From contig OX597836.1 of the NCBI GenBank assembly GCA_951406725.2, positions 49,352,001-49,416,000 of the forward strand: 64,000 nt of DNA. Reading direction: 5' to 3'. The position numbers and the translations under genes were made by a program. This DNA is from Octopus vulgaris. Taxonomy: Eukaryota. How positions within the stretch are numbered: the first letter of the stretch is position 1; the number at the start of each line of letters is the position of its first letter. The notes under the pieces were generated by a model. The model made no database searches and had not been told where the DNA came from. It worked only from the letters and a program-made list of their open reading frames with translations. Of this stretch, positions 2,280 to 63,411 are shown in pieces.

Positions 2280-3775
2280 TAAGATGGTAGAATCATTAGG
2301 ACAGTGGAGCAACATTTTGTCTGTCTTAACGTTCTGAGTTCAAATTCCACTGAGGTCAGCTTAGCCTTTCATCCTTTCAGGGTTAATAAAATAAGTACCA
2401 GTTGACAACTGGGGATTAATGTAATCGACTAGTTCCCCTCCCCCAAATTTCAGGCCTTGTACCTTTAGTAGAAAGGATTATTATTATTATTAAGGCAGTG
2501 AGCTGGTAGAATTGGTGCATTGGACAAAGTACTAAGCAGTATTGCTTCTAGTTTTTTAGATTCTGAGTTCAAAGCTGATAATACCAGTCATGTGCTGGGG
2601 TTCATGTAATAGACTAACCCCTTCTCATTTTGTTGGCCTTGTACCAAAAATTTGAAACATTATTATTATTATTATTATTATTACAAAGGTTTTGGTTGAC
2701 AGAATGTGGGTGTATTTGTGGTCCTTTGCTATCAAAGTTCAAATCTTGCCCTGGTCAACTTTGCCTTTCATCTTTCCTGAGCCAAGTTAATTGACCAGCC
2801 TCCTCTACAAAATCTCAGGATTTCAGCCTATATTATTAAAAAAAAACTATCACATTATAACGATAATAATAATAATTATTGTTATTATTATTATTATTAT
2901 TATTGTTATTGTGGCTGGTGCCAAACACAATCTCGACTGTTGCTAGTTCATTCCAAGGTCTAAATCTCAGGGTTTCCACTCCTTAACACACATGAATGCC
3001 ACCAACTCTTATCTCGCACCCACATTCCCTTTAGCAAAAACAAAACAAAATAAAAACTATCTCAGGGTTCATATCTATGCAAGAAAGTGTTTATTTTTTA
3101 GTTACCAGATGTTAGTGGTTGTTGATGTATCATTATCTTTTTGAATATATTTTAATTCCCACTTGAATCCAATCAGCAATTTGCACCCCAACTTTACTGG
3201 GTTGGTAAAATGAATCACCAGTCAAGAGCCATGATTATGTAATTATTCAACACCCTCTTTTAAAAAATTGCTGTCCTTGTGCTTAAATCAAAAACCCTCA
3301 TTATCATCATCATTATTATTATTATTATTATTATAAGGCAGTGTTGCTGGTAGAACTATTCACACACTGGACAAAATGCCTAGCAGCATTCTTAAGTTCA
3401 AATTCTGCTGAGGTCAGTTTCACCTTTTATCCTTTCAGGGTTCATAAAAATAAGTACCAGTTAACAACTGGGGGGGGGTTGATGTGATCAACCCACCCCC
3501 TTCTCTAAAAAACTGCTGGTCTTGTGCCAAAATTAGAAACAATTGTTATTATTATTTGTAGACTAATTATTATTAAGGCAACGAACTGGCAGGGTCATTA
3601 GCACGTTGGGCAAATGCTTAGCGGCATTTTATTATAAGTTCAAATCCCCGCAAGGTTGACTTTACCTTTCATCCTTCTGGGTCAATAAAATAAGTACCAG
3701 TTGGATATTGGGGTCAATGTAATCAATTTATCCCCTCCCCCAATATTAATGGCCTTGTGCCAAAATTTGAAATCA
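2280..3775 (+). mobile_element. Head-to-tail array of ~6 SINE copies (family S1) separated by (TTA)n
   Basis: Repeated aaggc..gagctgg.agaat...ttctgagttcaaattc...gcctttcatcctt.....ggt..ataaaataagtaccag...ggccttgt starting near 2280, 2492, 2687, 3335 and 3575, plus a partial copy near 3180. Confidence 0.8.
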
Positions 3776-3832
3776 TTATCATCATCATCATCATCATCAT
3801 CATCATTATTCATCATCATCATCATCATCATT

Positions 3833-4378
3833 TAGCGTCCGTTTTCCATGCTAGCATGGGTTGGACGGTTCAACTGGGGTCTGGGGAGCCCGAAGGCTGC
3901 ACCAGGCCAGTCAGATCTGGCAGTGTTTCTACAGCTGGATGCCCTTCCTAACGCCAACCACTCCGAGAGTGTAGTGGGTGATTTTATGTGCCACCGACAC
4001 AGGTGCCAGACGAGGCTGGCGAACGGCCACGCTCAGATGGTGTTTTTATGTGCCACTGACACAGGTGCCAGACGAGGCTGGCAGACGGCCACGCTCGGAT
4101 GGTGTTTTTATGGGCCACGCTCGGATGGTGTTTTTATGTGCCACCGACACAGGTGCCAGACGAGGCTGGCAGACGGCCACGCTCGGATGGTGTTTTTATG
4201 TGCCACCGCCACAGGTGCCAGATGAGGCTGGCGGACGGCCACGATCGGATGGTGTTTGTTACGTCCCCAAAGCACGGAGGCCAGTCTATGCGGTACTGGC
4301 TACGGCCACGTTTGGATGATTTTCTTGTGTGCCACCGGCACTGGTACCACAAAGATACAAATTCCATTGATGTTCATC
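3833..4378 (-). mobile_element. SINE family S3 with an RTE-like 3' end and (GAT)n tail
   Basis: Minus strand ends ...gttggcgttaggaagggcatccagctgtagaaa...ccaacccatgctagcatggaaaacggacgctaaa(tga)n; homologous to 13462-13812 and fragments near 6510, 7240 and 29300. Confidence 0.75.
3982..4260. repeat. 62-bp GC-rich tandem repeat (4 units plus a 26-bp partial unit) inside SINE S3
   Basis: Unit ttttatgtgccaccgacacaggtgccagacgaggctggcagacggccacgctcggatggtgt; the atg recurs at 3986, 4048, 4110, 4136 and 4198. Confidence 0.9.
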
Positions 4379-4380
4379 TA

Positions 4381-4435
<55 letters not shown>

Positions 4436-4455
4436 CATTATTATTATTATTGTTG

Positions 4456-4673
4456 AAGGTGGCATGCTGGCAGAATCATTAGCACACTGGGTGAAATGCT
4501 TAGTGGTATTTCACTCATCGCTACGTTCTGAGTTCAAATTTCATCGAGGTCGACTTTGCCTTTCATCTTATCAGGGTCAATAAATTAAGTACCAGTGAAA
4601 CACTGGGGCTGAAGTAAACAACTTGTCTCCTTCCCGCCAAAAAATTGACTGCCCTTGTGGCAAAATTTGAAAA

Positions 4674-4727
<54 letters not shown>

Positions 4728-5420
4728 CATTATTATTAAATGGCAAATGATTGGCTGAATAATGAAAATGTTGACTAAAATTACTTTTGAAGGAATTGTT
4801 TTGTGTTCAAATTCTGCTGAGGTTAACTTAGTCATTCTTCAAAGTTTGATAACCAATCAGGTTTTAACAGTCAGTTTCTACCAAAGCTTGGAATAATTAG
4901 TGCAACTGCACCAAACAAAATGCTTAGCAGCATTCCTTCTGACTTCTTCCATCCTGAGTCATCTACCACTGAGGTCAACTTTGCCAATTGTCGTCTTTTC
5001 GGAGTCAATAAAATAATGTGATCATTGAGCACTCGGGAGCCATGTAGTTGATTGGTGCCCTCCCACCCAAAAAATTTCAGGCCTTGTACTCGTTGAAGAA
5101 AGCATTATTGAGAGGGTGGTGCCTGAAGATAATAGCCAGAACCATTTCAGCAACATCAATTTTATTCTTCATCTTTCTTCATCTTTGCATCAATTTGATT
5201 GACTTAATCTCTCCCACAAAATTTCAGACCTTGTATATATCTTAAAACACATAATTATTAAAGGTATTAAGGGTGCTAAGTAGGGTGGCACACAACATGC
5301 CTTGTGGTGTTTAGTTATGCTTTAGTTCCAGGTTCAAATCTCATTGGAGTTAATTTTGCTTTTCACCCTTCTGGGGTTCAATACAATGAAGTTTCTCTTA
5401 AATTCTTGGGGTGGGAGGCA
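4456..5420 (+). mobile_element. Further S1 SINE copies in array
   Basis: Well-preserved copy at 4456-4674 (gaaggtggc..gctggcagaatcattagcac...gtcgactttgcctttcatc) and decayed copies near 4739, 4890 and 5270. Confidence 0.75.
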
Positions 5421-14502: not shown

Positions 14503-14723
14503 GGAAGAAGAAATTTCTAACAAAGATACAAGGCCAGAAATGTTGAGGGGAGGGGGACTAGGGTTAACACTGAGCTCATTCCAGTTGGATGAAATGACAA
14601 AGCTGACTTCAGTAGGGTTTGAACTCAAAATGTAATGAAATGCAACAAAACCTATAGGAAATTTTTTCTCTTTTTTTCTTTTTTTTTTTGGGTGGACGAT
14701 ACTCCACTGATTGTATCATTCAC

Positions 14724-14759
<36 letters not shown>

Positions 14760-14966
14760 CCTTTCTAGTATAAGCACAAGGTCTGAAATTTTAGTGAAGG
14801 GGGATCAGCAATTACATTGACCCCTCTGAGCTCAAATGATCTTATCTTATCAACCCAACAAAAAAGGAAAGGCCAATACAAGTTTGGCAGAATTTGAACT
14901 CAGGACGTAAAAACAGACAAAACACTGCTGAGTATTTTTGTCTGGCGTGCAAACAATTCTACCAGC

Positions 14967-15054
<88 letters not shown>

Positions 15055-15060
15055 TAATAA

Positions 15061-15165
15061 TATGTGCCTAGTGTACCCTTATCATATGAGTAGTCATGAT
15101 GGATATATTGGGCTTCGTATATTTTACCCCAGTTCACTTTGATGACATACACTGCTCTCTCACTC

Positions 15166-21040: not shown

Positions 21041-21763
21041 ATGAAATATGACCTTTTATATGCAAACCCCTAAATGTTTCTCACAAACGAACTTAACAGA
21101 TATAAAGTATCTGTATATGCAAATCATATGTATGCATGCCTGTATCATGATATATATATATATATATATACAAAAAATGGGATAAGAACGCAACAGGTGG
21201 CAACAAAATGTCCAGACAGAGGATACAAAAAAGGGACAAGAAAAAACAAGGATGGGTCATTCGGAGTTTTCTTTCATCAGTCAAGTTCTAGATTACACAT
21301 GCATATATATGTATGTATATTTGTATGTATTTATGTATCATCTTGTATATACATATAGACATAATTTAAGCCGACTCACTTTTAATGTTTGTGCTATTGT
21401 TGTATTGTATAAAGCCACCAGTTGAAACACACAACTTTTAAATCCTTAAAACCCTTAAAAATGTTTTAGCCCGAAGGCCGCGGCCATGCTGGGGCCAAAA
21501 ACAACACTGGTCTCCCAGTATAGGAAGCTGCTATTTACTGCCCTCACCTTCTGGCATTCTATGTTCCTGTCAACTCCTGTGTCATTTCACTCTCAATATG
21601 TCTTAATAACTGGGTAAAAAAATGGTTGAGCCAAAGCAGTAGGAAACTGGTTGATAAAGGAAACCATCTGTGCCCCAGGGGCAAATCTGGGTAAACACTT
21701 ATGACAATTTACATGTTCAAAATATATTCATATTAATGATGTGTTTTTGGAATATGTTTTTGG

Positions 21764-21995
21764 AAGGCGGCAAGCTGGCAGAAATGTTAGCATGTCGGGT
21801 GAAATGCTTAGTGGAATTTTGTCTGCCTTTACTATATTCTGAGTTCAAATTCCACCAAGGTCAACTTTGCATTTCATCCTTTCGGGGTCGGTTAAATAGG
21901 AACCAGTTACGCACTGGGGTCAATGTAATTGACTTAATCCCTTTGTCTGTCCTTGTTTGTCCCCTCTGTGTTTAGCCCCTTATGGGCAATAAAGA
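21764..21995 (+). mobile_element. S1 SINE
   Basis: aaggcggcaagctggcagaaatgttagc...gagttcaaattcc...tttcatcctttcggggtcg. Confidence 0.75.
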
Positions 21996-24119: not shown

Positions 24120-24695
24120 TATTATTGAAAGTATTCCAATATATATTCTAATTTGATCTTTTTCAATTACATTTTCGCATATCTCTCTGCATCAGACATT
24201 TATAGTTTGTTTGGAACGACAAAGTCAGTCTTCCAACTCTTTACATTTTGAGTTCAAATCTCACTGAGGTCAGTTTTGTCTTTTATTCTGTCAGCATTGA
24301 TAAAATAAGTACCAGTCAAATACCGTGATTGATGGAACTGATAACCCCCCCCCTCCGCTCTGACCCCTAAAATTACTGAGCACAGTTTCGGGGGGGGGGG
24401 GGGGACAAACGGCATTGTCATTATTGTATATTTTTATATCATTTGATTTCCTGTAATTCCCCTCATTTTATGTCTGTTTTTCTTATCACGCCTGCCCCCC
24501 CCACATTCACCGGGGGGGGAGGTCCCCTTATCTCCCCTATCTCATCTATCATCTACCCTACATCTATCACCCCCCCTCCATCTATTGTTCTCCCTTATTT
24601 ATCATCTCCATAATATAGAATTCCTCCACTCAGCCATTGTTTCCCCCACCCCCACCCCACCATCATCTGCCATCCCTCCATATCTGTTGTCTATC

Positions 24696-24727
<32 letters not shown>

Positions 24728-24741
24728 CATCATCATTATTG

Positions 24742-24905
24742 AAGGTGGCCAGCTGGCAGAGTGGTTAGCATGCTGAGCGAAATGCTTAGCACCATTTCGT
24801 CCATCCTTACATTCTGAGTTCAAATTCCACTGAGGTCAATTTTGCCTTTCATCCTTTTAGGGTCAATAAATTAAGTACCAGTTGCATACTGGAGTCAATG
24901 TAATC
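24742..24905 (+). mobile_element. S1 SINE after (TTA)n
   Basis: Same S1 motifs. Confidence 0.75.
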
Positions 24906-25916
24906 CCTTCTCCTCTCTCTCTCTTCACCTGTCCCGTCCTTAATGCTGCACCGGTTCAACGATAATAATAAGACTGGGAAGGTGTCTATGCTTGTTGCTC
25001 ACAACTCTACAGGCACCTATAACAGTAAGTGAAAGCATGGTACAATATTAGCAGGATGTAGTGGCCTGTGAATGATGGTCATGGGATTAGTTTGTATGAG
25101 AGAGAGAGAGAGTTACAAACAGACAGAAGGGGGAGAGACAGGAATGAGAAGGCAACAAGATGATGTAAAAGAAGAGTGAGGCAGATGGGAAGAAAGAGAG
25201 GAAAAGAGAAATGATGATGAGGAGGAGGAGGCTATGCTATAAGTCATGAGATTTCACTCACACTCACTTGTGAGTGAAGGTAAAGCTTTCTACATCAATA
25301 ATACAACAAAGTTCTCTTCTCTCTTCTCTCTCTCTCTCTCTCAACTCTTACAATATCAAACCTTCTCCCATGTATCCCATGATCCCAATGGATGTTGAAA
25401 CCCCCAAATGGTTTTATTTCATATAAGACTTCCCCTGGGTCACAACTGGTATTTCACACCACTTTTTTCTCCCTTTCAAAGTATGTTTCTCACACAACTT
25501 CCACTGCATAATCCTGTTAATGTTATCACTCTTCTTTTTGTGTTTCTCTTGTTCCGCGCTCATGCATTGCACTCATTTACAGTTTATTGACATCAAGAGA
25601 ATTTAAAGACTTTCAAGAGAACATGGAACCAGTCCGTTTCCAAACTGGTTCTTCAATTCCATACAATGCTAGGATTGAAAGCATGGCAATATTGGGTCCC
25701 CAAAGGCAGTTTTTGACTTTTACTTTCCAAAATGGGTTTTCAATCCAGCATTTATATGTTATTATTTATAGCTATATATATGTACTCCAAGACCCAGTTC
25801 CAAAAAAGAATTATATACACACACACACACATATATATATAATGTATGTATGTATATTTGTATGTCATGTATATATATATACATATACATATATATATAT
25901 GTATATGTCATATGTC

Positions 25917-32361: not shown

Positions 32362-32725
32362 AGACAGTAAGCTGGCAGAGTCATTCCTGCAATGAAGAAA
32401 ATGCCTGGCAGCATTTTGTCCATCTTTATGCTTTGAGTTCAAACTCAGTCAAGGCCGATTGTATCTTTCATCCTTTTAGGGTCGATGGAATAAGTACCAA
32501 TAGAGCTCTAGAGTCAATGGAATCGACTTTCAGGCCTTCTGCCGACAGCAGGAAGAAGAATCTGAAACCATTATTATCATTATTTGATGGAAACTCTCAA
32601 CTTATGTTGCTGGGTGTGGATGGAAAGTGTCTTCTGGCCACAGCCAGCAGATTAAGGGGACACTTGTTTACTGGTCATGCTTCAAGAACCCTGCCAAGAA
32701 TTCTTTCAGTTCCAAACAATGCTGA

Positions 32726-32756
<31 letters not shown>

Positions 32757-32757
32757 A

Positions 32758-32793
<36 letters not shown>

Positions 32794-33071
32794 GAATGCA
32801 GTGAGCATTAGCACAGTGGACAAAGGTGTTTGGCAGTATTTCTCCCAGCACTTTCTTTCTGAGTTCAAACTCCACTGAGGTCGACTTTGCTTTTCATTGT
32901 TTCGTAGGGGGGTTGCAATAAAATACAGTGCCAGTCAAGAAATGGGATCAAGGAAATTAGACTTCTTCCCTGAAAATTGCTGGCCTTGTGCCAAAATATG
33001 AAACACTTATCCTTCTTCTTCTTCTTCTCATTATTATTATTATCATTATTATCATCATCATCATCATCATC

Positions 33072-33131
<60 letters not shown>

Positions 33132-33570
33132 TCAAGGGCAGAATTGGCATTAGAACTTTGGACAAGAAGCTTTTGTAGCATTTCTTTCAGTTTTACATTT
33201 TGAGTTCAAAATCCTTTCAGGGTTGATAAATTAAGTATCAGTTGAATACTGGGATCGATGTGATCGACTTCTCCCTCCCCACCAAAAATTGCTGGCTTTG
33301 GGCCAAAAATTAGAAGGAATTATTATTATTATTATTATTAAGCTGGCCAGAATCGTTAGCACGCTGGGCGAAATGCTTAGCGGTATTTCTCCCATTGCAA
33401 CGTTCTGAGTTCAAATTCCGCCAAGGTCGACTTTGCCTTTCATGCTTTCGGAATCGATAAATTAAGTACCAGTTGAGCTCTGGGGTCGATGTAATTGACT
33501 ATACTCCTCCCCTAAATCTCAGGCCATGTACTTTCAATAGAAAGGATTATTATTATTATTATTATTATTG
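32360..33570 (+). mobile_element. Array of four S1 SINEs separated by (TTA)n
   Basis: Copies near 32360, 32800, 33133 and 33340; the last retains its CpGs (aatcgttagcacgctgggcg...ttccgccaaggtcgac). Confidence 0.8.
32585..32730 (-). mobile_element. R4/Dong 3' stub in (TTA)n
   Basis: Minus strand KSALFGTERILGRVLEA* resembles the Dong C-terminal K.ALLGTA.ILRR.L motif. Confidence 0.65.
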
Positions 33571-33795
33571 AATGGAGGGAAATGGTAGTCATGTTAAATT
33601 CTTGTCTGAGTAGTGGAAAGAAGCTTCCTGAATAAACGCCACAACATCCCAATTTGTCTAAACCTGCAACCTTGATACTTGGCAAACATTTTCGGTCATT
33701 ATGGTTGTTGATGTTGTTGTTGTTATTGTTTCTCTTTACTAATTTTTGTTTGTTTTAATTTTTATCTGTTTATTTTCTGTGGTGTATGGTGTGTA

Positions 33796-36785: not shown

Positions 36786-37172
36786 GGGTTTAATTCATTG
36801 AGTAAGTCCTATGGTTTGTTGACCGTTAAGTTCCAAAGTCATACAAATCCAGGCGGTATTTTGGATGAGGTATTCATATTGTAAATGTGTATAGAGAGCG
36901 AGAACATAAGATAGGCACAGATGTGTTTTGTGACTGGGTGTGTATAGGAGAGAGAGGGGGGAGAAAGAGAGAGAGAGGAGAAAGGAATGGAAATAAGATA
37001 GGGGTAGAAGGGTAAGAATAAGGATAAAAATAAAATAAAAGTAAAAGGTAACACATACATAAACATACACACATACAGACACCCATAAGCACATATATAT
37101 ATATATACATGCATACATACATACATACATACATACATACATACATACATACATACATACATACATACATAC

Positions 37173-40100
37173 ATTTTATTTATGGCTGCCCCCTCGTTAT
37201 CGAGTATGGCCATTGCACGACGCTTAACTGTTACTGGTGCTGTGATCGAATGTGACTTTTTAGCCCAGCTAAAGGTACAAAATTGACAACTAAAACCTTT
37301 ACCGGTAATAGCTGGCTGTAGTTGTAACTGGGCTTCTAGTACCTTTGCATGTCGTTTAAGTCCTCCTGCCGAATTACACTCTCTTCTACATGCCCGACAG
37401 ATATGATTAGTATGGTGTGTTACACCACCACCAGTGGCCAGGTTGTCACTCATCTGTCTCGTTTTATGACTACGAAGATGACTCATGAGTCCAGCTTTAC
37501 TGAGGCAGGGTCTTGCACAGACATTGCATGTCAGAATCAAAGGAAGACCCTTCCCTTCTGGAAGTGTAACAGCGATGCCCTTACTGACATCCCTCCTTAC
37601 TTTCTCATGTTCAACTCGAGATTTCTCAACCGTGGCTGTCCCCTCATGAACAATCCTTCTCCACCTGCTACGATCAATAGCTATGTCTTCCCATGTGTCA
37701 GGAGAGATGCAAGCATCTCTTAAGGAAGCCTTCAGCAAGTCCTTATACCTCTTTTTTGGTTTATGTGGAGGTCGTTCTCCTTTGGCCATAAAAGAGTTGT
37801 TTTGGCAACCTTGAATCCTTCATTCTGACCAGATGACCACTCCATCTGAAGAGCTTCTATACTTTAACACCGAGAGCCTTCGAGTATTTCAAGATCACTG
37901 ATGCGGTCCTTCCACTTAATGCTATAGATCCGTCTGAGGCACATCTGATGGAAACGTTCCAGTTGTTTAAGGTGGTATCGATATGTGACGCACGTCTCGC
38001 AGGCATAGAGAAGAGAAGGGAGCACACATGCCTTGTACACCTTTATCTTTGTCTTTCTGCATATATCTCGCCGACTCCAGAGGCGCTTTTCTAGCCTTCC
38101 GAAAGCAACATTTGCTTTCCTAATTCTATATGGAATTTCATCATCCACATTGCCATATCTATTAATAGTACTTCCCAGGTAGACAAACTGATCAACTACA
38201 TCAAGTCGTTTACTATACATATAGATATTTGGTACACTATACTGCTTACCAGGGGCAGGTTGATGCATGACAACAGTTTTCTTGAGATTGACTGTCAATC
38301 CTAAGGCAGTGCAAGCATCAGAGAATGCATTCAAAATGTATTGCATATCAATCTCTGTGTGTGCTACTAGCTCACAATCATCAGCATACAAAAGGTCTCT
38401 TATGATAGAGGTAAATATCTTTGTTTTTGCAGCAAGACGCCTGATATTAGGTATGCTGCCAGAGGTTTGATAATGGATGTAAACACCGTATCTGCAGTTT
38501 CTGAATGCAATACAGAACACCATCGCGAAATATATGGAAAATAGGATCGGTGCCAGAATATCGCCCTGTTTCACTCCATTTTGTATTGAAATGGGCTCCG
38601 ACATCTTCCCTCTAACATTCATCCTACTATTCAAGTCTTCATGAAAAGACCTAACCAAAGCAAGGAACTTTTCAGGACACCCAAGTTTCTGGAGGACTTT
38701 CCACAATGCTTTTCTATTGACGGTATCAAAGGCTTTTGTCAGATCGGCAAACACCTGATACAAATCCAGACCCTGTTCCACACTCTTTTCCTGAAGCTGT
38801 CTAGCTGAAAAGATCATATCAGCAGTGCCACATCCCACATGAAAGCCAGATTGACTTTCTGGAAGAACACAATCTGCAATGTATTTCAGCAGACGATCCA
38901 GAAGTATCCTGCATAAAACCTTTCCTACAGCAGACAGCAATGATACTCCCCTATAATTACCTCAATCATTCCTGTTGCCCTTTCACTTATACAGGACCAC
39001 CATCACTGCATTTCTCTGGTCCTCAGGTACAAATTCACTAGTCCATATCTTACCAAACAAAGAGTGAAGTTTCTGCAGAAGTTTCTCACCACCATACTGT
39101 AACAACTCCGCATGTATGCCATCCATACCCGGAGACTTCCCATTATTCAACCTTGAGACAGCCATTGCAACTTCTTCAAACTTTGGTGGTTCTGCGAGTG
39201 CTGCCTTCACAGGTAATCCAGGGATGAGATTGAGAACATTCTCACTAACTACAGACTGCTGATTCAAAAGTTCATCAAAGTGTTCTTGCCACCTTCGCAG
39301 AATTCCTTGTGAATCACGAAGAAGTTCTTTACCATCCCTGCTTCGAAGTGGTGTCAACAGGGAAGATGTCGGTCCATAAACTTCTCGCAAGAGACCATAC
39401 AACAGCTTTGTGTTATTGGAATCTGATGCCGCCTGTATCTCATCAGCCTTCTTACTCCGCCACGTATCCCTCATCTGAGAGAGCCTTTGCCTCACACGTG
39501 ATTTTACGTCTTCGAATTCCCTATGCAACACTTCCCTTTCCTGTGACTTTGCTGACAAATAGCGTGACAAAGTACGTCTTTTATCAGCCAATAAATCATC
39601 TTTATGTTCATCATTTTCTTTGAACCAATCTTGATGCTTTCTTTGTATCAATCCCAGAACTTTCTTGCCTATATCATAAATTGACTTTTTAAGGGTCGGC
39701 CAATCCTCCCCAATATCTGCAGCATTCATTTCCTCTCGTAAAGTTCTCTTCACACTATTATACCTAAGACGATCAACATTCAGTCTTTTAGGCAGGGTCA
39801 TCCCTGCAGCTCGGATTTTATGTTTTGTGACTAATTTCACTTTTGCACGTACTAGGAGGTGGTCAGTCCAACACTCAGCTCCACGAAGAACACGAACACA
39901 CTGCACATCCTGTCTGTCACGCACCCTAACTAGGATGTAATCCAGAATATGCCATTCTTTAGATGCAGGGTGCATCCATGTAGTCTTAAGCTTATTCTTT
40001 TGTTGAAACATGGTATTGGTAACACACAGACTTAGCTCCTCACACATCTGCAACAAAAGCATGCCATTACTATTACACTTCCCCACCCCATGCTTTCCAA

Positions 40101-41388
40101 TTACAGTCCATGTGTTAAAATCCCTACCCACTCTAGCATTAAAGTCACCTAGTAGGATGACTTGGTCTGCCCGAGGGATATTTCTTATAATGCCCTTCAA
40201 AGCATGGTAGAAAGAAAGTTGTTCGTCATCAGTATAGCACATAGTTGGAGCATACACACTCACCAAGGTCAAATAATTTCCTTTAGCCAAAGGAATTCTC
40301 ATGGACATAAGACGCTCATTAATTCCGACTGGGAATTCTTCAAACTTGTCCACAAGAGTAGTCTTAACAGCAAATGCCACTCCAGCTTCTCCTCTAAGCT
40401 TTTCATCTCTCCCTTTCCAAAAGAATGTATATTTTCCACAAGATTCTGTAAGATGACCATCTCCAGGTAATCTCGTCTCAGATAAAGCAACGATGTCAAG
40501 ATCATAGCGATGAAGCTCCTTCGCAACAAGCGCAGTCCTTCTTTCAGGACATTCAGAGGACTTGTGGTCAAGCAGTATCCGTACATTCCAACAGCCAATA
40601 TTCATTAATTTCTTTGGTTCTATCACAGTAGCATGATGACGGCCGGGTTCAGCTTGTGACGCTCTGGAGCCCCTGCCGGGCCAGACTCTTTCAGCTAATG
40701 TGGTTCCAGAGTCCTTACTGCCATTTATTTTTATACTGTTTTGGTACATCATTGATTTTTGCTTTTTAAGGCTACGGTCAGCCATTCATTTGAGACTCAC
40801 AGCACTATCAACAATCATGAATTAGTTAATCACTTTAATCAATCCAATGTAGTTATCGTGCAATACCTGTGCAAAAATATTTTTTTTTAAGTGAGGAAAG
40901 ACTGTGCACTGAGTCAATCCCACTCACTAAGCAACAGCAACCATAATCCGAAAAGAAGAACAAGTCAACATCATCGGTAACCACTGAGCCGCAGGTTTTA
41001 TGTCGGAGTTATCCCAGTTACCTGAGTTACTTTCTCCTAGAAGGATACCCTAACAAAGGCTAAGAGTCCTTCACTCCCAATGGTTTAACCGCGCGTTCGG
41101 GTATTCAGTCCGATTATTTCTATGTCCCCGCGCATGATACAGCCTTAAGCCTTAAGGGAAAAAAAAAAGAAAAGAAAGAAAAAAAACATTTATTGGATGG
41201 CCGTTGACTCTCAAGAGTTCCTCCGTCCTTTGACGGGTTTTGTTTTTCATCCCGCAGGGTGTCCAATAAACACCCTCCTCACCAAGCAAGCTTGGTGGGG
41301 TTACCGGTTTAGTCGCCGACGACCCGACCATGCAACAGGTTGTACTGGGTTACATGTTACCAGTAGCACTCGAAAGTGCCCTGACATA
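37173..41388 (-). mobile_element. Near-full-length RTE-clade (BovB-like) LINE, inactivated
   Basis: Single APE-RT ORF, ~600-bp 5' UTR with a ctcttagcctttgttagggtatccttctaggagaaag motif, very short 3' UTR running into (TATG)n. Confidence 0.9.
37200..40785 (-). pseudogene. RTE APE endonuclease-reverse transcriptase polyprotein, disrupted
   Basis: IGCWNVR, ALSETR, LGDFNARVG, LDYILV, TDH, DLTKAFDTV, GVKQGD, LLYADD, C-terminal CxxC..H...H. Two in-frame TGA near 38985 and 38965, plus a stop/deletion near 37864. Confidence 0.92.
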
Positions 41389-52257: not shown

Positions 52258-52524
52258 CCAGAATATACACTATCGATTTGGCAGACGCCTCAGGTTTCGT
52301 CCTTAACGAATTAATTGTTTGAATAAGTTGTCAACGGTGAAGGCTCAGGTCACCATCGACTCAATATAATCAATTCCAGAGTCCCATCATCAGGAAATGT
52401 TTTGCTGTTCTTGCAACAATTTGACCGTATATTCAACACACCTGGACTAATCTCACCCCCTCAAATTTCAAGTTCTGCACCAATGTTACAAAGGATTATT
52501 ATTATTATTATTATTATTATTATT

Positions 52525-52967
52525 GAGTGAGAGAGCAGTTCATGCCATCAAAGTGACACTGGGGTAAAATATACGAAGCCCAGTATACCCATCATGACTA
52601 CCCGTCTGATAAAGGCACACCAGGCACATGCATCACAACCATATGTGCGCGACATGGTGATCTCACATCAAGATAAACAGCACATGACCTTGCAGGTGGG
52701 GCCCAGTTAGAATTTTCTTCAGGTTGAGTAGTCCATCCTGCTCAAAAGGTCCCTGAATAAGGGTTGCTTTAGGATGTTGAACGAAACACCTATGTTTCCA
52801 GAGGTGAATTATTCAAACCCCAAAGAATCCCTCTCAACACATGGCCATGATGCTCCCCCACTACTTCTGCTCGTGATCAGAAATGCACATATCGTCAGCC
52901 ACTAAGGGACATGCTCAACTGGTTAAGGCCAAACAACTGACAAGCAAATCTGTGGTATTGAGCAGAA

Positions 52968-52971
<4 letters not shown>
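52525..52971 (-). mobile_element. Element A copy 1 (3' 447 bp)
   Basis: Flanked by (TTA)n; near-identical to 53404-53851. Confidence 0.85.
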
Positions 52972-53020
<49 letters not shown>

Positions 53021-53022
<2 letters not shown>

Positions 53023-53362
53023 GTTTTTTCCTTCTTTCTTCAAATTTTCTTCCGTTTCTCGCCGAGTGTTTTCCACATACCTAGGGCAGAGAAGCTCATT
53101 GTATGCATTTCCAGATTACACAGGCAAATTCACAAATAAAATATGTATTTAAATATTTAATAAATAAATAAATTCATGGATGGATGTTGTTTTCACAGCG
53201 ATAATGTTCTTCTCAGTACAAGAGCCGTTCCAGTTAATACGATTTTTTGCACTTCCTGTAGGGATGGTTGACCTGGAATCATTTTTAAATAGGTTTCAGT
53301 ACCTTTTTTTATCATTCCTAGAGATCCTATAATCACTGGTACTGTAGTCGCCTTGAGATGCT
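53021..53362 (-). mobile_element. R4/Dong 3' fragment (Dong-B)
   Basis: Minus strand HLKATTVPVIIGSLGMIKKG...QEVQKIVLTGTALVLRRTLSL*, then a 3' UTR and (TAA)n. Confidence 0.85.
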
Positions 53363-53403
53363 ATTATTAAAGGATTATTATTATTATTATTATTATTATT
53401 ATT

Positions 53404-54178
53404 GAGTGAGAGAGCAGTTCATGCCATCAAAGTGACACTGGGGTAAAATATACGAAGCCCAGTATACCCATCATGACTACCCGTCTGATAAAGGCACACC
53501 AGGCACATGCATCACAACCATATGTGCGCGACATGGTGATCTCATATCAAGATAAACAGCACATGACCTTGCAGGTGGAGCCCAGTTAGAATTTTCTTCA
53601 GATCGAGTAACCCATCCTGCTCAAAAGGTCCCTGAATAAGGCTTGCTTTAAGGATGTTGAACGAAACACCTATGTTTTCAGAGGTGAATTATTCAAACCC
53701 CAAAGAATCCTTCTCAACACATGGCCATGATGCTCCCCCACTACTTCTGCTCGTGATCAGAGATGCACATATCGTCAGCCACTAAGGGACATGCTCAACT
53801 GGTTAAGGCCAAACAACTGACAAGCAAATCTGTGGTATTGAGCAGAATATTTGCTGTTTCTTCAAATTTTCTTCCGCTCCATCTTTTCCATACCAAGGAC
53901 AAAACAATGTACATAATAACACTTCCAATCAGTTAAGATCAGAAGCCATGAGAGCCACTGCCTGGTACTGCATAGCCATGAGAGCCACTGCCTGGTACTG
54001 CATAGCCATGAGAGCCACTGCCTGGTACTGCATAGCCACTGCCTGGTACTGCATAGCCACTGCCTGGTACTGCATAGCCACTGCCTGGTACTGCATAGCC
54101 ACTGCCTGGTACTGCATAGCCACTGCCTGGTACTGCATAGCCACTGCCTGGTACTGCATAGCCACTGCCTGGTACTGC

Positions 54179-54180
<2 letters not shown>
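53404..54180 (-). mobile_element. Element A copy 2 with reiterated 5' end
   Basis: Full ~570-bp body plus tandem copies of its terminus; (TTA)n on both sides. Confidence 0.85.
53944..54180. repeat. 3 x 30-bp plus 7 x 21-bp tandem array
   Basis: agccatgagagccactgcctggtactgcat x3, then agccactgcctggtactgcat x7. Confidence 0.97.
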
Positions 54181-54239
<59 letters not shown>

Positions 54240-54242
<3 letters not shown>

Positions 54243-55960
54243 TAGTTTTATTTTTATATCGTGCTTTCACTTCACTACCGAGCGCAGCTCTGTGTGCCTT
54301 GTGTATGTGCTGTGATTTGTTGTGATGCTCTGATGGTTATTGTATGGAAAGTGTTCTGCGTAGGATGTGTGCAGTGCCTAGTAGTGCAATTTTCTGTATG
54401 TAATATGTGTTTGTAAGTCCTGGTGTTTTTGTTATGTATTTGTCTGAATATTTTTTTATCATACCTAATGCACCTACTATGATAGGAATTGTTTCTGTTT
54501 TCAGATTCCACATTCTAGTTACCTCTATTTCCAGGTCTTTGTATTTTGAGAGTTTCTCCATTTCTTTTAGAGACACGTTGTCATCAGCCGGTATTGATAC
54601 TTCAATTAGAAAGAATTTTTTATCTTCATGATCTCTGACAACTATATCTGGTCTGTTGGCCTTAATTTCTCTATCTGTGTGTATCGGCATATCCCAGAGT
54701 ATGGTTGCTTTCTCGTTTTCTGTGACCTTTTCTGGTGTGTGCCTATACCATCTTTTTTCTGTTGTTATTCCATAATGTTGGCATAGCTTCCAATGTATGT
54801 AGGTTCCAACTCTGTCATGTCTGTGAATATATTCCTTCTTAGCCAGGACTGGGCAGCTAGAGATAATATGATTTATTGTTTCTTGTCCATCTCCACATAT
54901 TCTGCAGTTACTTGTAATATTTCTTTTCATTACATGTTTTTGGTAATTTCTGGTGGGGAGGCTTTGGTCTTGTGCTGCAATTAAAAATCCCTCTGTCTCT
55001 GCTTTGAGTCCTGAGCTTCTCAACCATTGCTGGGATTTTTCTTTGTCTATTTCTTTTGCGTTTAGTTTAGTCCAGTATTTACCATGAAGGGGTTTTTCTT
55101 GCCATCGTTTTATCATGGTTCGTTGCTGTTCTATTTTTAGTTTGGATTCATTTGTTTTATAGCTTTTGTTGTTTCTTCATCTTCTTCTTCTTCTTCATGT
55201 TTATTAGGTGGTATGATTTCTTGTTTGTATTTGTCAGCTTCCTTAAATACTGAGAACAGTTTTTTGTTTTGCTCGTGTTTTGCCGCTATCTGGATTAGTT
55301 TTCCTTCCTTCTGAAATAGATATTTTTGCAGTCCTATGGTGGTTATTTTATAGTAGTTTTCCAGCTGTATAAGGCCTCTACCACCTTCTATACGTTGTAT
55401 ATATAGTCTTTCTATGTCAGATTTTGGGTGATGCATCCTAGATCCTGTCATTATTTTTCTTGTTTTCCTATCTATTTTGGTCAGTTCATTTCGTGTCCAG
55501 TTAAGGATATTGTAGCTGTAACTTATAACTGGGACAGCTAAAGTGTTGATACCTATTATCTTGTTTTTAGCATTGAGCTCTGTGTTTAGTATTGATCTAA
55601 CTCGTCTATAATATTCTTTTTTTATTTTCTCTTTCATTTGTGTGTGTTGTGTCTTATCTAGTTCATGGATTCCTAAGTATTTGTAAGTTTGGTTTTGGTC
55701 TAATTCTTTTATTTCATTGGTTTTATCTAGTGTGATGTTGTTACTCTTAACTAGTTTTCCTCTTTTCATGGTTACTTTGGCGCATTTTTCTAATCCAAAT
55801 TTCTAATCTATTTCTTTGGTAAATCCATGAACTGTCTTTAATAGTGTTTCCAGCTGTTTGTCATTTGCAGCGTATAGTTTTAGGTCATCCATATATAAAA
55901 GGTGGCTGATCGTTTTGCCGTAACATTTATATCCGCATCCAGTTCTATTTAGCATATCAG

Positions 55961-56032: not shown

Positions 56033-56784
56033 GAGTGAAGGAGCAGTGCATGCCATCAAAGTGACACTAGGGTATAAATATACGAAGCCCAATATACCCA
56101 TCATGACTACCCGTCTGATAAGGGTACACCAGGCACATACATCACAATCATATGTACGCAACACGGTGATCTCATATCACGATAAACAGCACATGACCTT
56201 GCAGGTGGGATCCAGTTAGAATTATCTTCAGGTCGAGAAGCCCATCCTGCTCAAATGGCCCCTGAATCAAATTGGTTTAAAGATGGTGAACGAAACACCC
56301 ATGTTTCCAGAGGTGAATTATTCAAGTCCCAAAGAATTCCTCTCAACACATGGATATGATAATATGCCCCCACTACTTCTGCTCGTGATCAGAGATGCAC
56401 ATATCGTCAGTCACTAAGGGATACGTTCAACTGGTTAAGGTCAAACAACTGACAAACAAATCTGTAGTATTGAGCAGAATATTTGCTGTAACCCATCTTT
56501 TATACCAAGACAAAACAATATACATAACACTTCCAATCAGTTAAGATCGGAAGCTATGAGAGCCACTGTCTGGTACTGCATGGCTTCTGATCTTAACTGA
56601 TTGTAAGTGTTATCATGTATATTGTTTTGTCTTGGTATAAAAGATGGACCTCAGCAAATATTCTGCTCAATACTACAGATTTGCTTGTCAGTTGTTTGAC
56701 CTTAACCAGTTGAGCATGTCCGTTAGTGACTGATGATATGTGTATCTCTGATTTCGAGCAGAAGTAGTGGGGAGCATCATAGCC
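56033..56784 (-). mobile_element. Element A copy 3 (56033-56581) plus an inverted copy of its 5' ~200 bp (56579-56784)
   Basis: After ...ggtactgcat the sequence continues ggcttctgatcttaactgatt..., the reverse complement of the preceding DNA back to ~56355. Confidence 0.88.
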
Positions 56785-58078: not shown

Positions 58079-59912
58079 ATGTCGAGAAATTTTATTTAGA
58101 ACGCTGGTTGCGTTCTTTTATGGACCAGCATTTTCCTAGTCTGGAAACGCGAGGAGAAAAAAAGAACGTATGCACGCAAAGTGCAAACCTGAATGACGTG
58201 GTAGTGAACGCTGCAACCACTTGCGGTAAGAGCCCTGTCACCACCACCACCACCACCTCCACCACCACCACCACTACCACCACGACCAACATAAATGATA
58301 AAAATGAAACTCACGCGAATACTATTAAGAAAAACAACAACAACAATAAAAATGAACTATCTAATAGTGAAGATGTTAATATAAAAAAAATCAACAACAC
58401 CAGTAAATTTCGCTGACACTGCGTCAGAAGAAGGAAATAGTAACATTTACAAATGAAGAGCTAATAGAAACGAGAACTCTCTTTACAACCCGTGGGCAAG
58501 ATTTAGTGCTGCATACACCTCAACACATAAAGGAACAAATAGAAAATAAGACAATTATATATAAAATTATAAGAAAAAAACAAAAAACAAAATGAACAGA
58601 TTACAAAAACGGATATAGAAAAATGTTTAAAAAGCATAATGAAAAAAGAAAGAATATATAAACTGGGGTCCCCAGTTTAACACAGTGGTGGTCCGCTTCC
58701 CTAACCAGGAAATGGCAAAAGCTCACTCTACCGAGTCTTTGGAAAATGATGATATCAAAATGGTACCTTATTTCAAAGGCAAGAGAGTGAGTAGAATTAC
58801 TATTAAAAATGTACCCCCCCGAGATCCCGAACAAATGGATAACAGGGGCAATCTGTTACCATTTGAAAAAGATCAATATTTTAGAAACAGCCGTGTACCT
58901 AAACGACAATTGGGGTGGAAAAACAATAGTAGTGACCATCCAGATTGAGGGGGCCTCTATCGAGAGCCTACCCGATAGGATCCACCTAGAAAATGGGCAA
59001 AGCCTATATGTTGTGGCAGAAGGCAAGAAGCCTAGATGCTACAACTGTGGCAGCCCAGAGCATTTAATTGCCAAGTGCACTCTGGCACAGAAAAAACAAG
59101 AAAGAACAAATCAGAAAACAAATAAAAAACCCTTGTTGCCAATACCAACACCAACACACTCAATTATGGAACAATGCCAAGAAGAAAAACAACAAACCAG
59201 CAAACAAACCCCAACAACATCACCAAGAAAAGAAACAGTACCAACAAAATCACCGTTGACGACGCAACCAATTTATCATGCTGAACCAAAAGATAGACCC
59301 ACACCAACACCCAGGACGACAATTAAAAAGACAGAAAACAGTGACGAGAAGACAAATTCTACCCCTAACACCATAACAACACAAACACCGCACAAAACAT
59401 CAACAATTTCTATAAGCATACATATTAACACAAATACTTTGCCTTTACCCTCTTCTGATACGTCGGACGACGAAAGTTCGACGGAATGGCAAATAGCCAC
59501 AGGGGGTAAAAGGAAAAGATCAAAAAAGCCCACCAAACAAGGAAGTAAAGCAGGGAGATATTTAACTCCGGACAGCACCCCCCTAGACAATCAAAAAGTC
59601 AATGAACCCGCAAAACCACACACACAACTAACTGCAATAGACACAGACAATAAAAAATTAATGGATTACATTGTATCCAACACGGACATCTGTGAAGATG
59701 ACTTTAAGACAAACAATCATCCGCGCACCACACCACCGAAGCACATAAAAATTGTACACATAACACAAACACAACACCATACACTGAAAACAATATTTCC
59801 AAATGCGGTAGGCGGGTTTCAACGATACCTCTCCAAAAAACTATACAAACACCTCATCAAAGACACTACAAAAGAAGAAGAAAAAAATGAAACTTTCGAA
59901 ATGAGTAAGTGA
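58079..59912 (+). pseudogene. Tx1 ORF1 (gag-like, CCHC knuckle), split by frameshifts
   Basis: SRITIKNVPP/EIPNKW (shift in a C7 run near 58814-58820), CYNCGSPEHLIAKC, T/P/K-rich tail, WQIATGGKRKR. Start position is approximate. Confidence 0.75.
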
Positions 59913-59979
59913 CCTTCCCTCTTGCCTCTTGTCTCTTCCAATGTTTGTGTGTGAAACACAATTTTCGTAAACGTCAATT

Positions 59980-62900
59980 ATGCTTAAATTAGGTTGTGTG
60001 AATGCGCGTGGCTTGGCGTCGGCTTGGAAGCAAGGTTACCTTCTAAACGACATCAAGTCACTGAACGTGGATATAGTAGCTATCAGTGAAACCAGACTCA
60101 GCAAGTCGCGGGCCCTCGCGTCCATGTTTGGCGATCAATTTGACATTTATTTTTCTCCCTGTCTGCCGAACATGGGTGGTGGAGGTACCGTGGTGCTTTT
60201 TCGAAAGAGTCTAAATGTAAAAGTAAGAACAATATTCCTAGATCCGGAGGGTAGGCTGGTTGTCTTGGACGTGGATGGCAGAAATGGGTGTGCATTCCGT
60301 CTGATGGCAGTTTATGCACCGTCCTTAACGGGTCGGGCGGATTTCTTCAGACGTCTAGAGGTTTTCCTGGGTACGTCTAGACCTTTACTGTTAGTAGGGG
60401 ATTGGAACGCTACCTTGGACACGCATCTAGATTATGTGGGAATGGATAGGAATAGAAGGGGGTGTAAGTGCCTCAAAGACCTACTCAGACGTTTCCATTT
60501 GTCTGACAGGTTCCGACTCGACCATCCGAACGTGCCAACGTGGACTTGGACAAACCGCGTCGGATCGTCGAGATCTTATCTAGACAGAATTCTATGCAGG
60601 ACAGCGGATAGGGATAGTGTAGGATGTCCACAATTTAAAATAGTCAGCTACACAGATCACAAATTTGTGACGTGTACGCTCGATTTAGATAAGACACATA
60701 GACAGGGTCCCGGTTACTGGAAACTGAACACGTCGCTCTTAGCGCGACAGGTTTACAGGAACCGGATTAGCGAGTTAATTAAGAGGGCGCTGACGGGAGC
60801 CGTCGTTAACAACCGCTGGTGGTTCGCCCTGAAAATGACAATAAAATCGGAATCAATTAGGTTTAGCAAGGAATTAGCGATAGATCGAAACAGAGTAGAG
60901 GGAGACCTAGTTAAGAAACTAGAAGAGGCACTTACTACTGGCAGCGCAACCAACGCGATGGCTGCGAGGATGGCCCTCGACCAACACCTCAACGCCAAGC
61001 ACGAAGGTTGCGTCGTCAGAGCTAAAATGCGTGCCTTAAGGAACGAAGGGATCGAAGCTGCGCGTGAGGCCCGGGTAGCGGAGGCGCAGCGTGGAAACAG
61101 AGCTACCATTCGGTCTCTAATAGATCAACAGGGATGCAGTTTACTCGAACCTGAAAGGATGCGTGAGGCCTTTCAACAGCACTTTGCTCGATTGTTTGGT
61201 GCGAGTGGTGGGTCGGAACGCGGGATGGATTTCAGTGCCTACCTGACCGACCTGCCGCGGCTCTCGGCAAGAGAAGCGGAGTGTTGTGAAAGTCTCATCA
61301 CAGCCGCTGACGTGCGGGATGCGATGGCGGGCTGCGCGAGGGATAAGTCGCCTGGATTGGATGGTTTACCCTACGAGCTGTATTGTCAAATGCCAGACTT
61401 GTTTGACGACCTCTTGGCATCAGTCTACTGCAACTGGCAACAAAACGGGAGAATTCCCGGTTTCGTGAGCCGAGGTGCAGTGACGTTGCTGAAGAAAGAC
61501 CCAAACAAGGGGAATTTTATAGATAATTTCAGGCCCATCACTCGGCTCAATGCAGATTTGAAAATTTTGGCCAAAGTAATAGCCGAGAGGTTGGCGCTTG
61601 TCATTGGTAAACTGGTCGACAGGGCGCAAACATGCGCCGTGCCGGGCAGAACCATACATGACAACCTCCATCTGATGCGCTACATTGTGGACAGGGTAGT
61701 TAAGGATCCTGGCATGGGTGGGGCGCTGATAAATTTGGATCAGTCTAAAGCATTCGATAGGGTCGACCATCGGTACTTGGCGGCCGTCCTCAGGGCGGCT
61801 GGCTTCGGTCCCGTCTTTCGCGGTTGGATCGCTGCCTTGTATAGCGGCATCCGATCGGTGATTCGGGTGAACGGTCACCTGTCGAAACCGTTTGACATCA
61901 CGCGTTCGGTCCGTCAGGGGTGTCCCCTGTCGGCGCTTCTGTATGTATTGACTCTCGAGCCGCTACTGCGGAAGCTGGCGACACTGAGGGGCATCCCACG
62001 GGAACTGGGTTGCGGGACGAGCGTGTCGGCATATGCGGACGATGTCACCGTCATAGTGTCGAGCAACAAACACATCCAGATGATAGGCGAGACACTAAGA
62101 AAATACGAAACGGTGACGGGAGCGAAGATTAACCCGGAAAAGTCAGTGGGTTTGCTACTCGGCACCTGGAGAAGCAAGCCCATGCCGTCCGACTGCGGCT
62201 CAGTAGTGGGACGCTGGACGGACAGACCGGTTAAATTGCTCGGGGTCTGGTTCAGTCCGGACCTCCAAATGGATAAGAACTGGAACCAGATCACGAGTAG
62301 AGTGGTCGCTCTCAGCCAAACATGGGCCGAGAGAAAGCTGTCTCTAAAAGGCCGGGCGGAGGTGGCGAACGCGTACATCGCATCCGTCATCGATTACCGC
62401 CTGACCGTCGTGCCTTGTCCCGACGCCACCATCACCAAACTAGAACGCATACTCTTCCGCTTCCTGTGGAAGGGTGGCGTTCCGATGGTGAGGAAGTCCA
62501 TTTGCTGTCAACATCCGTTGAATGGAGGACTGGGAATGCCGTGGTTGATGATGCGCAGGCATGCGCTGAGACTGCGGCATCTCTGGAACTTCATCGACGA
62601 CGGTGAACAGGTGTGGGCGCCGTTTGTGAGACGCGCCTTCCCGCAGCTCGTCTCACTGACCAAACTGCAAACGTGGATCAAAAAGAGACCGAAACTGGGC
62701 GATTGGCACCGAGAGTGTCGCCAAACTCTACAGCAGCTCTGCCGACCGGGGTCAAACTTGTGCAACTTACAAACGACTAAAGCGTTCTATAGAGGACTAG
62801 TGGAGGGGAGGTCCGACGACACACTCGGGGCAAACCTGGGCGTCGACGAGAAATTCCTAACCCGCCTGTTCAGGACGACGTTCGGGCCGGGGCCTATGGA

Positions 62901-63411
62901 TAACTTCCAGAAATCCCTGGCTTGGCAGTGCTATCGAGACGCACTACCTGTTCGAGAGAAGAGCTACAGACACGGTTCGAAAACCATCACCAGACCGACC
63001 TGCCCGAGATGCGGCCAGAGCGACGAAACCGTTCTGCACGCACTCGTGCAGTGTCCAGATATTTCAGAGCTGTGGACCTTCGTCGAACAGCTGTTGTCAC
63101 GTGTAGGTCGGGCCCGCCTATCGGCCGAGTCTATCGTGAATATTGTTCCACCACCTTCCTTTAAACGGGAAGGGAAAACGGTTTTCGTTACGCTGATGGC
63201 TATGGCGAAAGAATGTGTGTGGTGGACGCGTTTGAAAGGACTGCAAACAAACACCTTCCTCTCTGGTCAGTCTCTCGTCAACTTTTTCAAGTACCACTTG
63301 AAAATGAGGATGAGAATAGAGAGGAAGGCTTTGTCGAACGAATGTTTCAATAAAAAGTGGGTAAAAGTGGCAAAAATGGTCAGTATGAAAGACGACACTA
63401 ACGAGAAGTAA
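59980..63411 (+). CDS. Tx1/L1 ORF2: AP endonuclease, reverse transcriptase and C-terminal zinc finger, 1143 aa, uninterrupted
   Basis: GCVNARGL, ISETR, VYAP, VGDWN, YLDRIL, TDHK, KSPGLDG, DQSKAFDRVDH, VRQGCPLS, AYADD, GGLG, CPRCGQSDETVLHALVQC. Confidence 0.95.
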   Translation: MLKLGCVNARGLASAWKQGYLLNDIKSLNVDIVAISETRLSKSRALASMFGDQFDIYFSPCLPNMGGGGTVVLFRKSLNVKVRTIFLDPEGRLVVLDVDGRNGCAFRLMAVYAPSLTGRADFFRRLEVFLGTSRPLLLVGDWNATLDTHLDYVGMDRNRRGCKCLKDLLRRFHLSDRFRLDHPNVPTWTWTNRVGSSRSYLDRILCRTADRDSVGCPQFKIVSYTDHKFVTCTLDLDKTHRQGPGYWKLNTSLLARQVYRNRISELIKRALTGAVVNNRWWFALKMTIKSESIRFSKELAIDRNRVEGDLVKKLEEALTTGSATNAMAARMALDQHLNAKHEGCVVRAKMRALRNEGIEAAREARVAEAQRGNRATIRSLIDQQGCSLLEPERMREAFQQHFARLFGASGGSERGMDFSAYLTDLPRLSAREAECCESLITAADVRDAMAGCARDKSPGLDGLPYELYCQMPDLFDDLLASVYCNWQQNGRIPGFVSRGAVTLLKKDPNKGNFIDNFRPITRLNADLKILAKVIAERLALVIGKLVDRAQTCAVPGRTIHDNLHLMRYIVDRVVKDPGMGGALINLDQSKAFDRVDHRYLAAVLRAAGFGPVFRGWIAALYSGIRSVIRVNGHLSKPFDITRSVRQGCPLSALLYVLTLEPLLRKLATLRGIPRELGCGTSVSAYADDVTVIVSSNKHIQMIGETLRKYETVTGAKINPEKSVGLLLGTWRSKPMPSDCGSVVGRWTDRPVKLLGVWFSPDLQMDKNWNQITSRVVALSQTWAERKLSLKGRAEVANAYIASVIDYRLTVVPCPDATITKLERILFRFLWKGGVPMVRKSICCQHPLNGGLGMPWLMMRRHALRLRHLWNFIDDGEQVWAPFVRRAFPQLVSLTKLQTWIKKRPKLGDWHRECRQTLQQLCRPGSNLCNLQTTKAFYRGLVEGRSDDTLGANLGVDEKFLTRLFRTTFGPGPMDNFQKSLAWQCYRDALPVREKSYRHGSKTITRPTCPRCGQSDETVLHALVQCPDISELWTFVEQLLSRVGRARLSAESIVNIVPPPSFKREGKTVFVTLMAMAKECVWWTRLKGLQTNTFLSGQSLVNFFKYHLKMRMRIERKALSNECFNKKWVKVAKMVSMKDDTNEK

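Follow-up and report, generated by a model that had tools for sequence, protein, structure and literature searches.

Element A is a discrete, ORF-less and non-coding retroposon family of ~555 nt that occurs in high copy number in the genome of Octopus vulgaris; it is real, abundant, recently expanded, non-autonomous and SINE-like in its working. It is likely, with a probability of roughly 0.75, to be copied with the enzymes of Dong LINEs (R4 clade), a reverse transcriptase and an endonuclease; these, judging from sequence comparison and structure modeling, would recognize the predicted fold of its RNA and a run-on into (UAA)n rather than a common tail. The element had been singled out in an initial annotation of a 64,000-nt stretch of contig OX597836.1 (hereafter the window), and we searched the whole genome (2.8 Gb, 227 contigs) for it. 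Element A is numbered along a working majority sequence that has the G of GCCCTG at position 5 and the final C of CTCACTC at position 558, and its sense strand corresponds to the minus strand of the window.

The Element A 3' 30-mer gave 10,357 exact matches genome-wide and its reversed pattern gave none, which excludes chance. The 5' 25-mer (5,537 exact matches) and the 5' junction with the upstream repeat (3,330) were likewise absent genome-wide as reversed controls. Since the 3' pattern was present in 7 of 21 copies met incidentally, a rough estimate of ~30,000 Element A copies follows. Among the first 30 copies anchored at the 3' end, 14 were full length (starting at or before position 5, with L100, which has an internal deletion, counted in), 4 started at 9-16, 12 were shorter and none extended further. 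Repeat tracts lay directly upstream of 27 of these copies; the remaining three comprise one reiteration, one inversion and one chimera with Dong. When the first 30 copies anchored at the 5' end were analyzed, all had repeat tracts upstream, and 28 reached the 3' end, two of these in GAA tracts. GCCCTG was preceded by AT in 23 of these 30 copies and by an extra G in none. The two samples (30 + 30 anchors) have eight loci in common. Two window copies indeed stop at ATGCAGTACCAG, as annotated, but this terminus is not the 5' end of the family, which is ATGCCCTG and lies 8 nt further out.

The annotation of Element A as a discrete, non-autonomous element without an ORF was upheld. No frame longer than 70 codons was present inside any copy, and 0/12 frames matched Pfam at E ≤ 1. 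A 3' UTR of a LINE was ruled out as the source, as 0/60 sampled anchors (0/30 at the 3' end and 0/30 at the 5' end) run on into a LINE or join a LINE ORF. Element A is short and interspersed, with a fixed 5' end and 5' truncations, all of which are SINE-like features; terminal inverted repeats and a TA duplication, which are features of MITEs, were absent from the anchored copies examined. The copies are 80 to 100% identical and fall into several subfamilies, and near-identical young copies were found in both Element A and Dong-1. Runs under six organism codes contain 0.7-1.0 of the sampled Element A words. A shorter ancestor, ending at position 271 and followed by (AAT)n, was considered and rejected (only 3 matches genome-wide).

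Features of the window are listed in Table 1. All four annotated copies with CTCACTC-type ends against (AAT)n were confirmed. The focal copy aligns to the majority sequence with 530 identities, 18 mismatches and 22 gaps; its reiterations, its start at 11 and its unique patch make it atypical. Twenty nucleotides of the patch are identical to the neighboring Dong 3' UTR at 53035-53054, 800 bp away, and the patch may have arisen by local conversion or by assembly mixing. The neighboring Element A copies (52490-52972 and 53369-53852) are 97.7% alike, with the Dong 3' UTR at 53035-53054 between them. The inverted piece differs at 20 positions from the copy that it adjoins, so the two come from different templates. 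Penelope-like terminal repeats around ORFs 54337-55802 were considered and rejected, the ORFs being those of a truncated Dong set off by TAA arrays. The window also contains an L1/Tx1-like LINE with two ORFs, flanked by tetranucleotide repeat tracts and with an open frame of 1146 codons (58791-63411, plus strand), a broken AP-endonuclease LINE with C2H2 fingers (36839-40785, minus strand) and copies of an abundant tRNA-type SINE, which is flanked by (ATT)n tracts and is on the other strand from Dong and Element A.

Table 1. Features of the window; numbers in the last column are Element A positions unless a unit is given
Feature	Window positions	Strand	Remarks
Element A, focal copy	53404-53973	-	11-558, lacking first 8 nt of family 5' end
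Element A, 5'-truncated copy	52525-52972	-	111-558, truncated at 111; between (AAT)n arrays
Element A, older copy	56033-56581	-	11-558; 41 mismatches
Element A, 3' fragment	15062-15165	+	454-558; between (AAT)n arrays
Element A, inverted piece	56579-56784	+	34-240
Tandem reiterations of Element A 5' end	53974-54180	-	nine, seven measuring 21 nt and two 30 nt; adjoin focal copy
5' head domain of focal copy	53856-53973	-	5-104; predicted long interrupted hairpin; part of least variable region 30-153
Copy-specific patch in focal copy	about 53857-53892	-	~35 nt; found once in genome
Middle segment of focal copy	53688-53855	-	about 107-274; common to 488-bp MITE family
Predicted 3' domain of focal copy	53405-53741	-	221-557; prediction
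(AAT)n target array at focal copy 3' end	53374-53403	-	
(AAT)n target array at focal copy 5' end	54181-54239	-	common to 3' end of Dong-1 copy
Dong-1 LINE, 5'-truncated	54240-55960	-	RT end, CCHC finger, restriction-like endonuclease, 101-nt 3' UTR; likely helper family
Dong-4 (another Dong family), 3' fragment	53022-53373	-	
tRNA-type SINE copies	4380-4740, 21760-21940, 24690-24910, 32720-33575, 2300-2690, 3290-3835, 14720-14970	opposite to Dong/Element A	

TAA repeats are the described target of Dong, a group of elements with a restriction-like endonuclease (PMC1635306, PMC3812793, in the text available). In the octopus genome, Dong-1 is ~3.97 kb long, and a full copy has a long frame that matches R2 proteins over the reverse transcriptase and endonuclease (E = 3e-37); a homologue search with the Dong protein returned 2180 relatives, almost all unnamed, and does not by itself name the clade. 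The Dong-1 matches listed (at least 150) are 96-100% identical, and the family is therefore young. AATAAT follows the last base at 58/62 Element A ends and at 49/55 Dong-1 ends: the two families use the same (AAT)n strand and the same junction phase. Reiteration of the 5' end was observed in 2 of the 8 Dong-1 copies that have a 5' end and, for Element A, at L002, L008, L211, L212, L213 and L214 as well as in the window copy. At one locus, L087, the order is (AAT)n, Dong-1 826-941, Dong-1 3073-3378, Element A 243-558 and (AAT)n, with no repeat at the joint. This arrangement, the only Dong-A chimera among the loci examined, could be the product of a template switch; the alternative would be two insertions plus two deletions. 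The match in strand and phase, the 5' tandem reiterations and the chimera together make mobilization of Element A by Dong likely, as the initial annotation had proposed.

Several further properties of the Dong families were noted. At least four TAA-targeting families with unrelated 3' UTRs, plus older ones, are stacked in the same arrays. Many near-identical Dong-1 copies (L081, L079, L075, L078, L083) are split at the same place into overlapping frames of ~470 and 813-815 codons, by either a shared frameshift or an assembly error. The 5' end of Dong-3 (L259, L261) begins with AGAGTGAG, whose complementarity to the final bases of Element A is probably a matter of chance. By eye and post hoc, a terminal helix that closes on ACT, one base short of the repeat, is conceivable in both Element A and Dong-1.

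We analyzed the predicted structure of Element A RNA. Folding of the whole sense strand of the majority sequence gave z = -3.38 (0/100 shuffles), compared with z = +0.67 (71/100) for the antisense strand; the sense strand of the window copy gave z = -3.06, likewise ahead of all 100 shuffles. Only 1 of 16 sense-strand windows of 100 nt had a z below -2, and the head alone gave z = -1.8. The prediction comprises three domains, at 5-104, 116-218 and 221-557. The 3' terminus closes the third of them, its terminal TCTCTCACT pairing with 221-229, and this domain also has a 17-bp helix (230-246/437-453). In contrast, the annotated pairing of ctctcatggct with gccatgtgttgaga has a probability of 0.000 in the ensemble of the family consensus. 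At paired sites in 116 distinct copies, the pair was kept in 13/16 common transitions versus 51/94 singletons, mostly by G-U swaps (p = 0.037; this and the other fold and variant p-values come from related copies and are uncorrected for multiple testing). All 6 common transversions break predicted pairs. The covariation analysis proposed earlier gave the fold modest support: common transitions tend to keep pairs, but two-sided change is nearly absent (8/136 pairs; RNAalifold covariation term of only -0.6 for 51 aligned copies). A sense-strand fold, as modeled here, is plausible.

The head is the most constrained part of Element A, with 1 common variant in positions 30-153 versus 24 in positions 154-530 and similar singleton rates (p = 0.023, related copies). 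Its origin was examined by comparison with the genome's own 5S, 7SL, tRNA-Sec and tRNA-Lys genes. In the course of this search, a 5S cluster with genes in both orientations (L031-L035, C4 near 35.2-35.3 Mb), a tandem 7SL cluster (L116-L121, C5 near 143.1 Mb) and three tRNA-Sec genes (L172-L174) were observed. A 5S-derived head was rejected (first 160 nt of Element A, 804/2000 shuffles as good), as was a 7SL-derived one (7SL 1-100 versus Element A 1-100, 178/500). Whole 7SL against whole Element A was equaled by 14/500 shuffles, and the match is not at the head. The Rfam search proposed earlier returned no match at E ≤ 10 for one clean Element A copy, and only sub-threshold chance matches for the 5.5-kb region. 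An H/ACA-like reading, based by eye on ACAGCA after the first hairpin, was rejected, there being no ACA box.

It is possible, but unlikely, that Element A is freed from read-through transcripts by self-cleavage in its conserved 5' domain, an arrangement compatible with mobilization by Dong. The HDV-like ribozyme of silkworm Dong cleaves at the junction with the TAA repeats (PMC3774820, in the sections available), and the sharp 5' end and constrained head of Element A would fit such an activity. Against this, HDV descriptors score Element A no better than shuffles (152/200), a result whose weight is limited by the descriptor's unproven sensitivity, given that a scan of Dong-1 with it also found nothing. 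Rfam searches returned no ribozyme match for Element A, and no hammerhead, the ribozyme of retrozymes and Penelope terminal repeats, was detected; the two CUGANGA words do not form one (by eye).

Slightly less likely is that Element A is an ordinary Pol III SINE with a tRNA-derived head that has eroded past recognition, which concerns the origin of the head and is also compatible with mobilization by Dong. The start with GCCC, the precise 5' end and the absence of a run of five T are as expected of such an element, and 5'-anchored alignments point the same way for tRNA-Lys(TTT) (z = 2.96) and tRNA-Sec (34/2000 shuffles). However, other windows of Element A score as high against tRNA-Lys(TTT), and the best of 27 tRNA sequences, representing only about eight isotypes, was equaled at the Element A head by 13/200 shuffles family-wise; for tRNA-Lys(CTT), the figure was 787/2000. 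The tRNA-Sec and tRNA-Lys heads were set aside as not significant, tRNA-Lys(TTT) being borderline. When the head test was applied to three control SINEs of the window, two passed (2 and 3/200) and one failed (130/200), so that the test misses some heads. ARAGORN found no tRNA in Element A. With the box patterns used, we detected no A box, no B box in the head and only one B-box-like word, at position 301, in agreement with the annotated lack of an A/B-box pair. A bacterial promoter scan, of no relevance in this genome, found nothing.

The tail was compared with those of Dong elements. The initial annotation had seen no likeness to the Dong tails of the window, and the same holds on a wider scale: Element A resembles neither the ends of Dong-1, -2 and -3 (8 to 60/60 shuffles score as well) nor any of 15 Dong 3'-UTR clusters built from 100 fragments (highest z = 1.5), and a near-full Dong-4-type copy (L268) has no Element A match inside. 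These results bear on the idea that Element A is an internally deleted derivative, consisting of the 5' and 3' ends of a Dong family that is rare or extinct, comparable to R2 SIDEs, and moved by that parent via ordinary tail recognition. Such a derivative would have the target and junction phase of Dong, as Element A does. R2 yields derivatives of this kind (PMC5786205) and R4-clade elements can carry 5' ribozymes (PMC3774820), as stated in the available parts of these reports. Moreover, a published octopus annotation counts 51 Dong-R4 consensus sequences, 5 of them recently active (PMC13282606, in the text available), so that with three full-length families compared, a minority, a rare Dong parent has room to exist. 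We nevertheless consider this origin improbable: besides the lack of any match to the Dong ends and 3'-UTR types, in contigs from four public runs aligned to the 320 nt at the 3' end, the best-supported loose ends, beyond which there are 2009 others, included no junction with a LINE, and the very young Element A copies need a living helper. Mobilization by an AP-endonuclease LINE of the RTE, CR1 or L2 type with a preference for trinucleotide repeats is less probable still, for although RTE-like LINEs with (GAT)n tails are present in this genome and GAA tracts end 2/30 Element A copies, Element A is unlike the RTE-like and L1-like elements of the window, its strand and phase match Dong, and L087 is a Dong-A chimera. 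Element A behaves as a SINE would, but in these comparisons neither its head nor its tail passed as that of a known class.

Mobilization by Dong would proceed as follows. An RNA starting at AUGCCC would arise through signals that lie within the first ~150 nt of Element A, the conserved part. We favor, as somewhat more likely than not, an uncapped transcript from an internal promoter over self-cleavage from read-through RNA, which seems doubtful. Dong-1 starts (n = 7) vary in purine-rich extra bases, whereas Element A starts are uniform and without an extra G, a hint of an uncapped RNA. The RNA would fold into three domains, with its 3' end in a helix beside the UAA run; the Dong protein would nick the (ATT)n strand and prime reverse transcription at the Element A 3' end, and template jumps at the RNA 5' end would yield reiterations and chimeras. 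More tentatively, Element A may be a selfish structured RNA, derived neither from an RNA gene nor from a LINE, that takes over R2-like, site-specific machinery solely through its shape and through pairing with the target repeat; its conserved 5' domain would then be a new promoter or self-processing motif.

Loose ends that recurred in contigs aligned to Element A pointed to another family. Its members, 488 bp long, have imperfect terminal inverted repeats of ~120 bp and are flanked by TA, features by which the family is classed as a Tc1/mariner-type MITE; a first look gave 2571 candidates in the genome. Element A 105-274 sits inside this older MITE: 19/20 copies anchored in the inverted repeats contain nearly the whole segment and 1/20 part of it. 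The two consensuses differ at 5/168 sites. Capture of the segment from Element A into the MITE is favored by predicted helices that cross the segment boundary (221-229/549-557, 230-246/437-453 and 258-272/301-316). The greater age of the MITE copies speaks for the opposite direction (median divergence of 9.6%, versus 1.8% for sampled Element A copies, a sample biased to young copies), and the CpG polarity of the 5 differences points neither way. Palindromy of the MITE interior, which would mark the segment as native to the MITE, was rejected (1095/2000 shuffles as good). Two MITE/Element A recombinants through the common segment were found (L219 and L220); L220, in which the reiterated left half of the MITE is joined to the Element A 3' half with (AAT)n as its tail, resembles a further product of template switching. 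At MITE loci L122-L171 (e.g., L155:1116-1604), the 170 nt of Element A lie beside 85 nt resembling an intron end and exon start. Of the structured-RNA descent put forward in the initial annotation, the sense-strand fold is supported. Descent from one structured cellular RNA would be conjectural: none of the RNA genes compared gave a match, and the middle third also occurs in a DNA transposon.

What these observations mean depends on the origin of Element A. Should it turn out to be a tRNA SINE with an eroded head, or to derive by deletion from a Dong family outside our sample, it would be an ordinary new family. If the selfish-RNA reading is true, Dong would have its first high-copy passenger in an animal, and an R2-family enzyme would accept foreign templates in nature. 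R2-type proteins are generally held to choose their own 3' UTR strictly; ~30,000 copies without a common tail would mean that template choice is relaxed, or based on shape, in a family of site-specific enzymes now under development for gene insertion. The Dong-1 protein and Element A RNA are a natural pair for a direct test of template choice. The sharply defined 5' end in a short element without A/B boxes raises a question of its own.

In a literature search whose scope left out most subscription papers, including a 1994 octopus SINE paper, we found no description of Element A and no match to a described SINE. The family may be present, unnamed, in automated repeat libraries. The OK and OR1 cephalopod SINEs belong to the same class as the Ceph-SINEs and the CORE-SINE OR2. 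The latter are short, abundant, modular cephalopod retroposons like Element A, but have tRNA heads with A/B boxes and a CCTTGGG core (PMC5786205, PMC5804259, in the sections available), both of which are lacking from the Element A family sequence (core by eye). The available text of the octopus repeat papers lists tRNA-Core, tRNA-Deu and many unclassified SINE families, Element A not being described there (PMC8967140, PMC9115989), and that on bivalve SINEs names CR1, CR1-Zenon, L2 and Nimb as partners (PMC11481361). A SINE segment in common with a DNA transposon, as in Element A and the MITE, has a parallel in the V domain of a human DNA transposon (PMC5804259, in part); unlike that case, the 170 nt of Element A and the MITE are 97% identical between consensuses.

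Among elements with site-specific restriction-like-endonuclease machinery, R2 SIDEs, which are bipartite non-autonomous LINEs, resemble Element A in being non-autonomous and in having a defined 5' end. SIDE-type elements consist of their parent's own 5' and 3' ends, whereas Element A matches no Dong end examined. Bipartite LINE derivatives are listed for RTE, Ingi, Vingi and R2 only (PMC5786205, in the part available). Dong of Bombyx, Anopheles and Biomphalaria shares with Element A the TAA-repeat target, strand, phase, 5' truncation and reiteration (PMC3812793, PMC3774820, in the text available); unlike Element A, Dong is an autonomous LINE of ~4 kb, and the HDV-like ribozyme of silkworm Dong was sought but not found in Element A. 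The closest precedent is provided by EhSINE1/EhSINE2, EdSINE1 and R4-N1_ED of Entamoeba (PMC2996970, PMC3747384 Table 1, PMC1635306). As far as the available portions of these sources go, the R4 partners in the SINE/LINE pair table come from Entamoeba only, and all tabulated R4-clade passengers have a tail in common with their helper (PMC3747384 Table 1). Like Element A, the Entamoeba SINEs are non-coding elements of 500-600 bp with only weak A/B-like boxes, no identified precursor RNA and an R4-type LINE partner with a restriction-like endonuclease, a likely partner in the case of Element A. EhSINE1 has ~70 bp of its 3' end in common with EhLINE1, whereas Element A has no detectable common tail; and while EhSINE1 has no fixed target and makes TSDs, Element A targets (AAT)n, in an animal, and has reached tens of thousands of copies.
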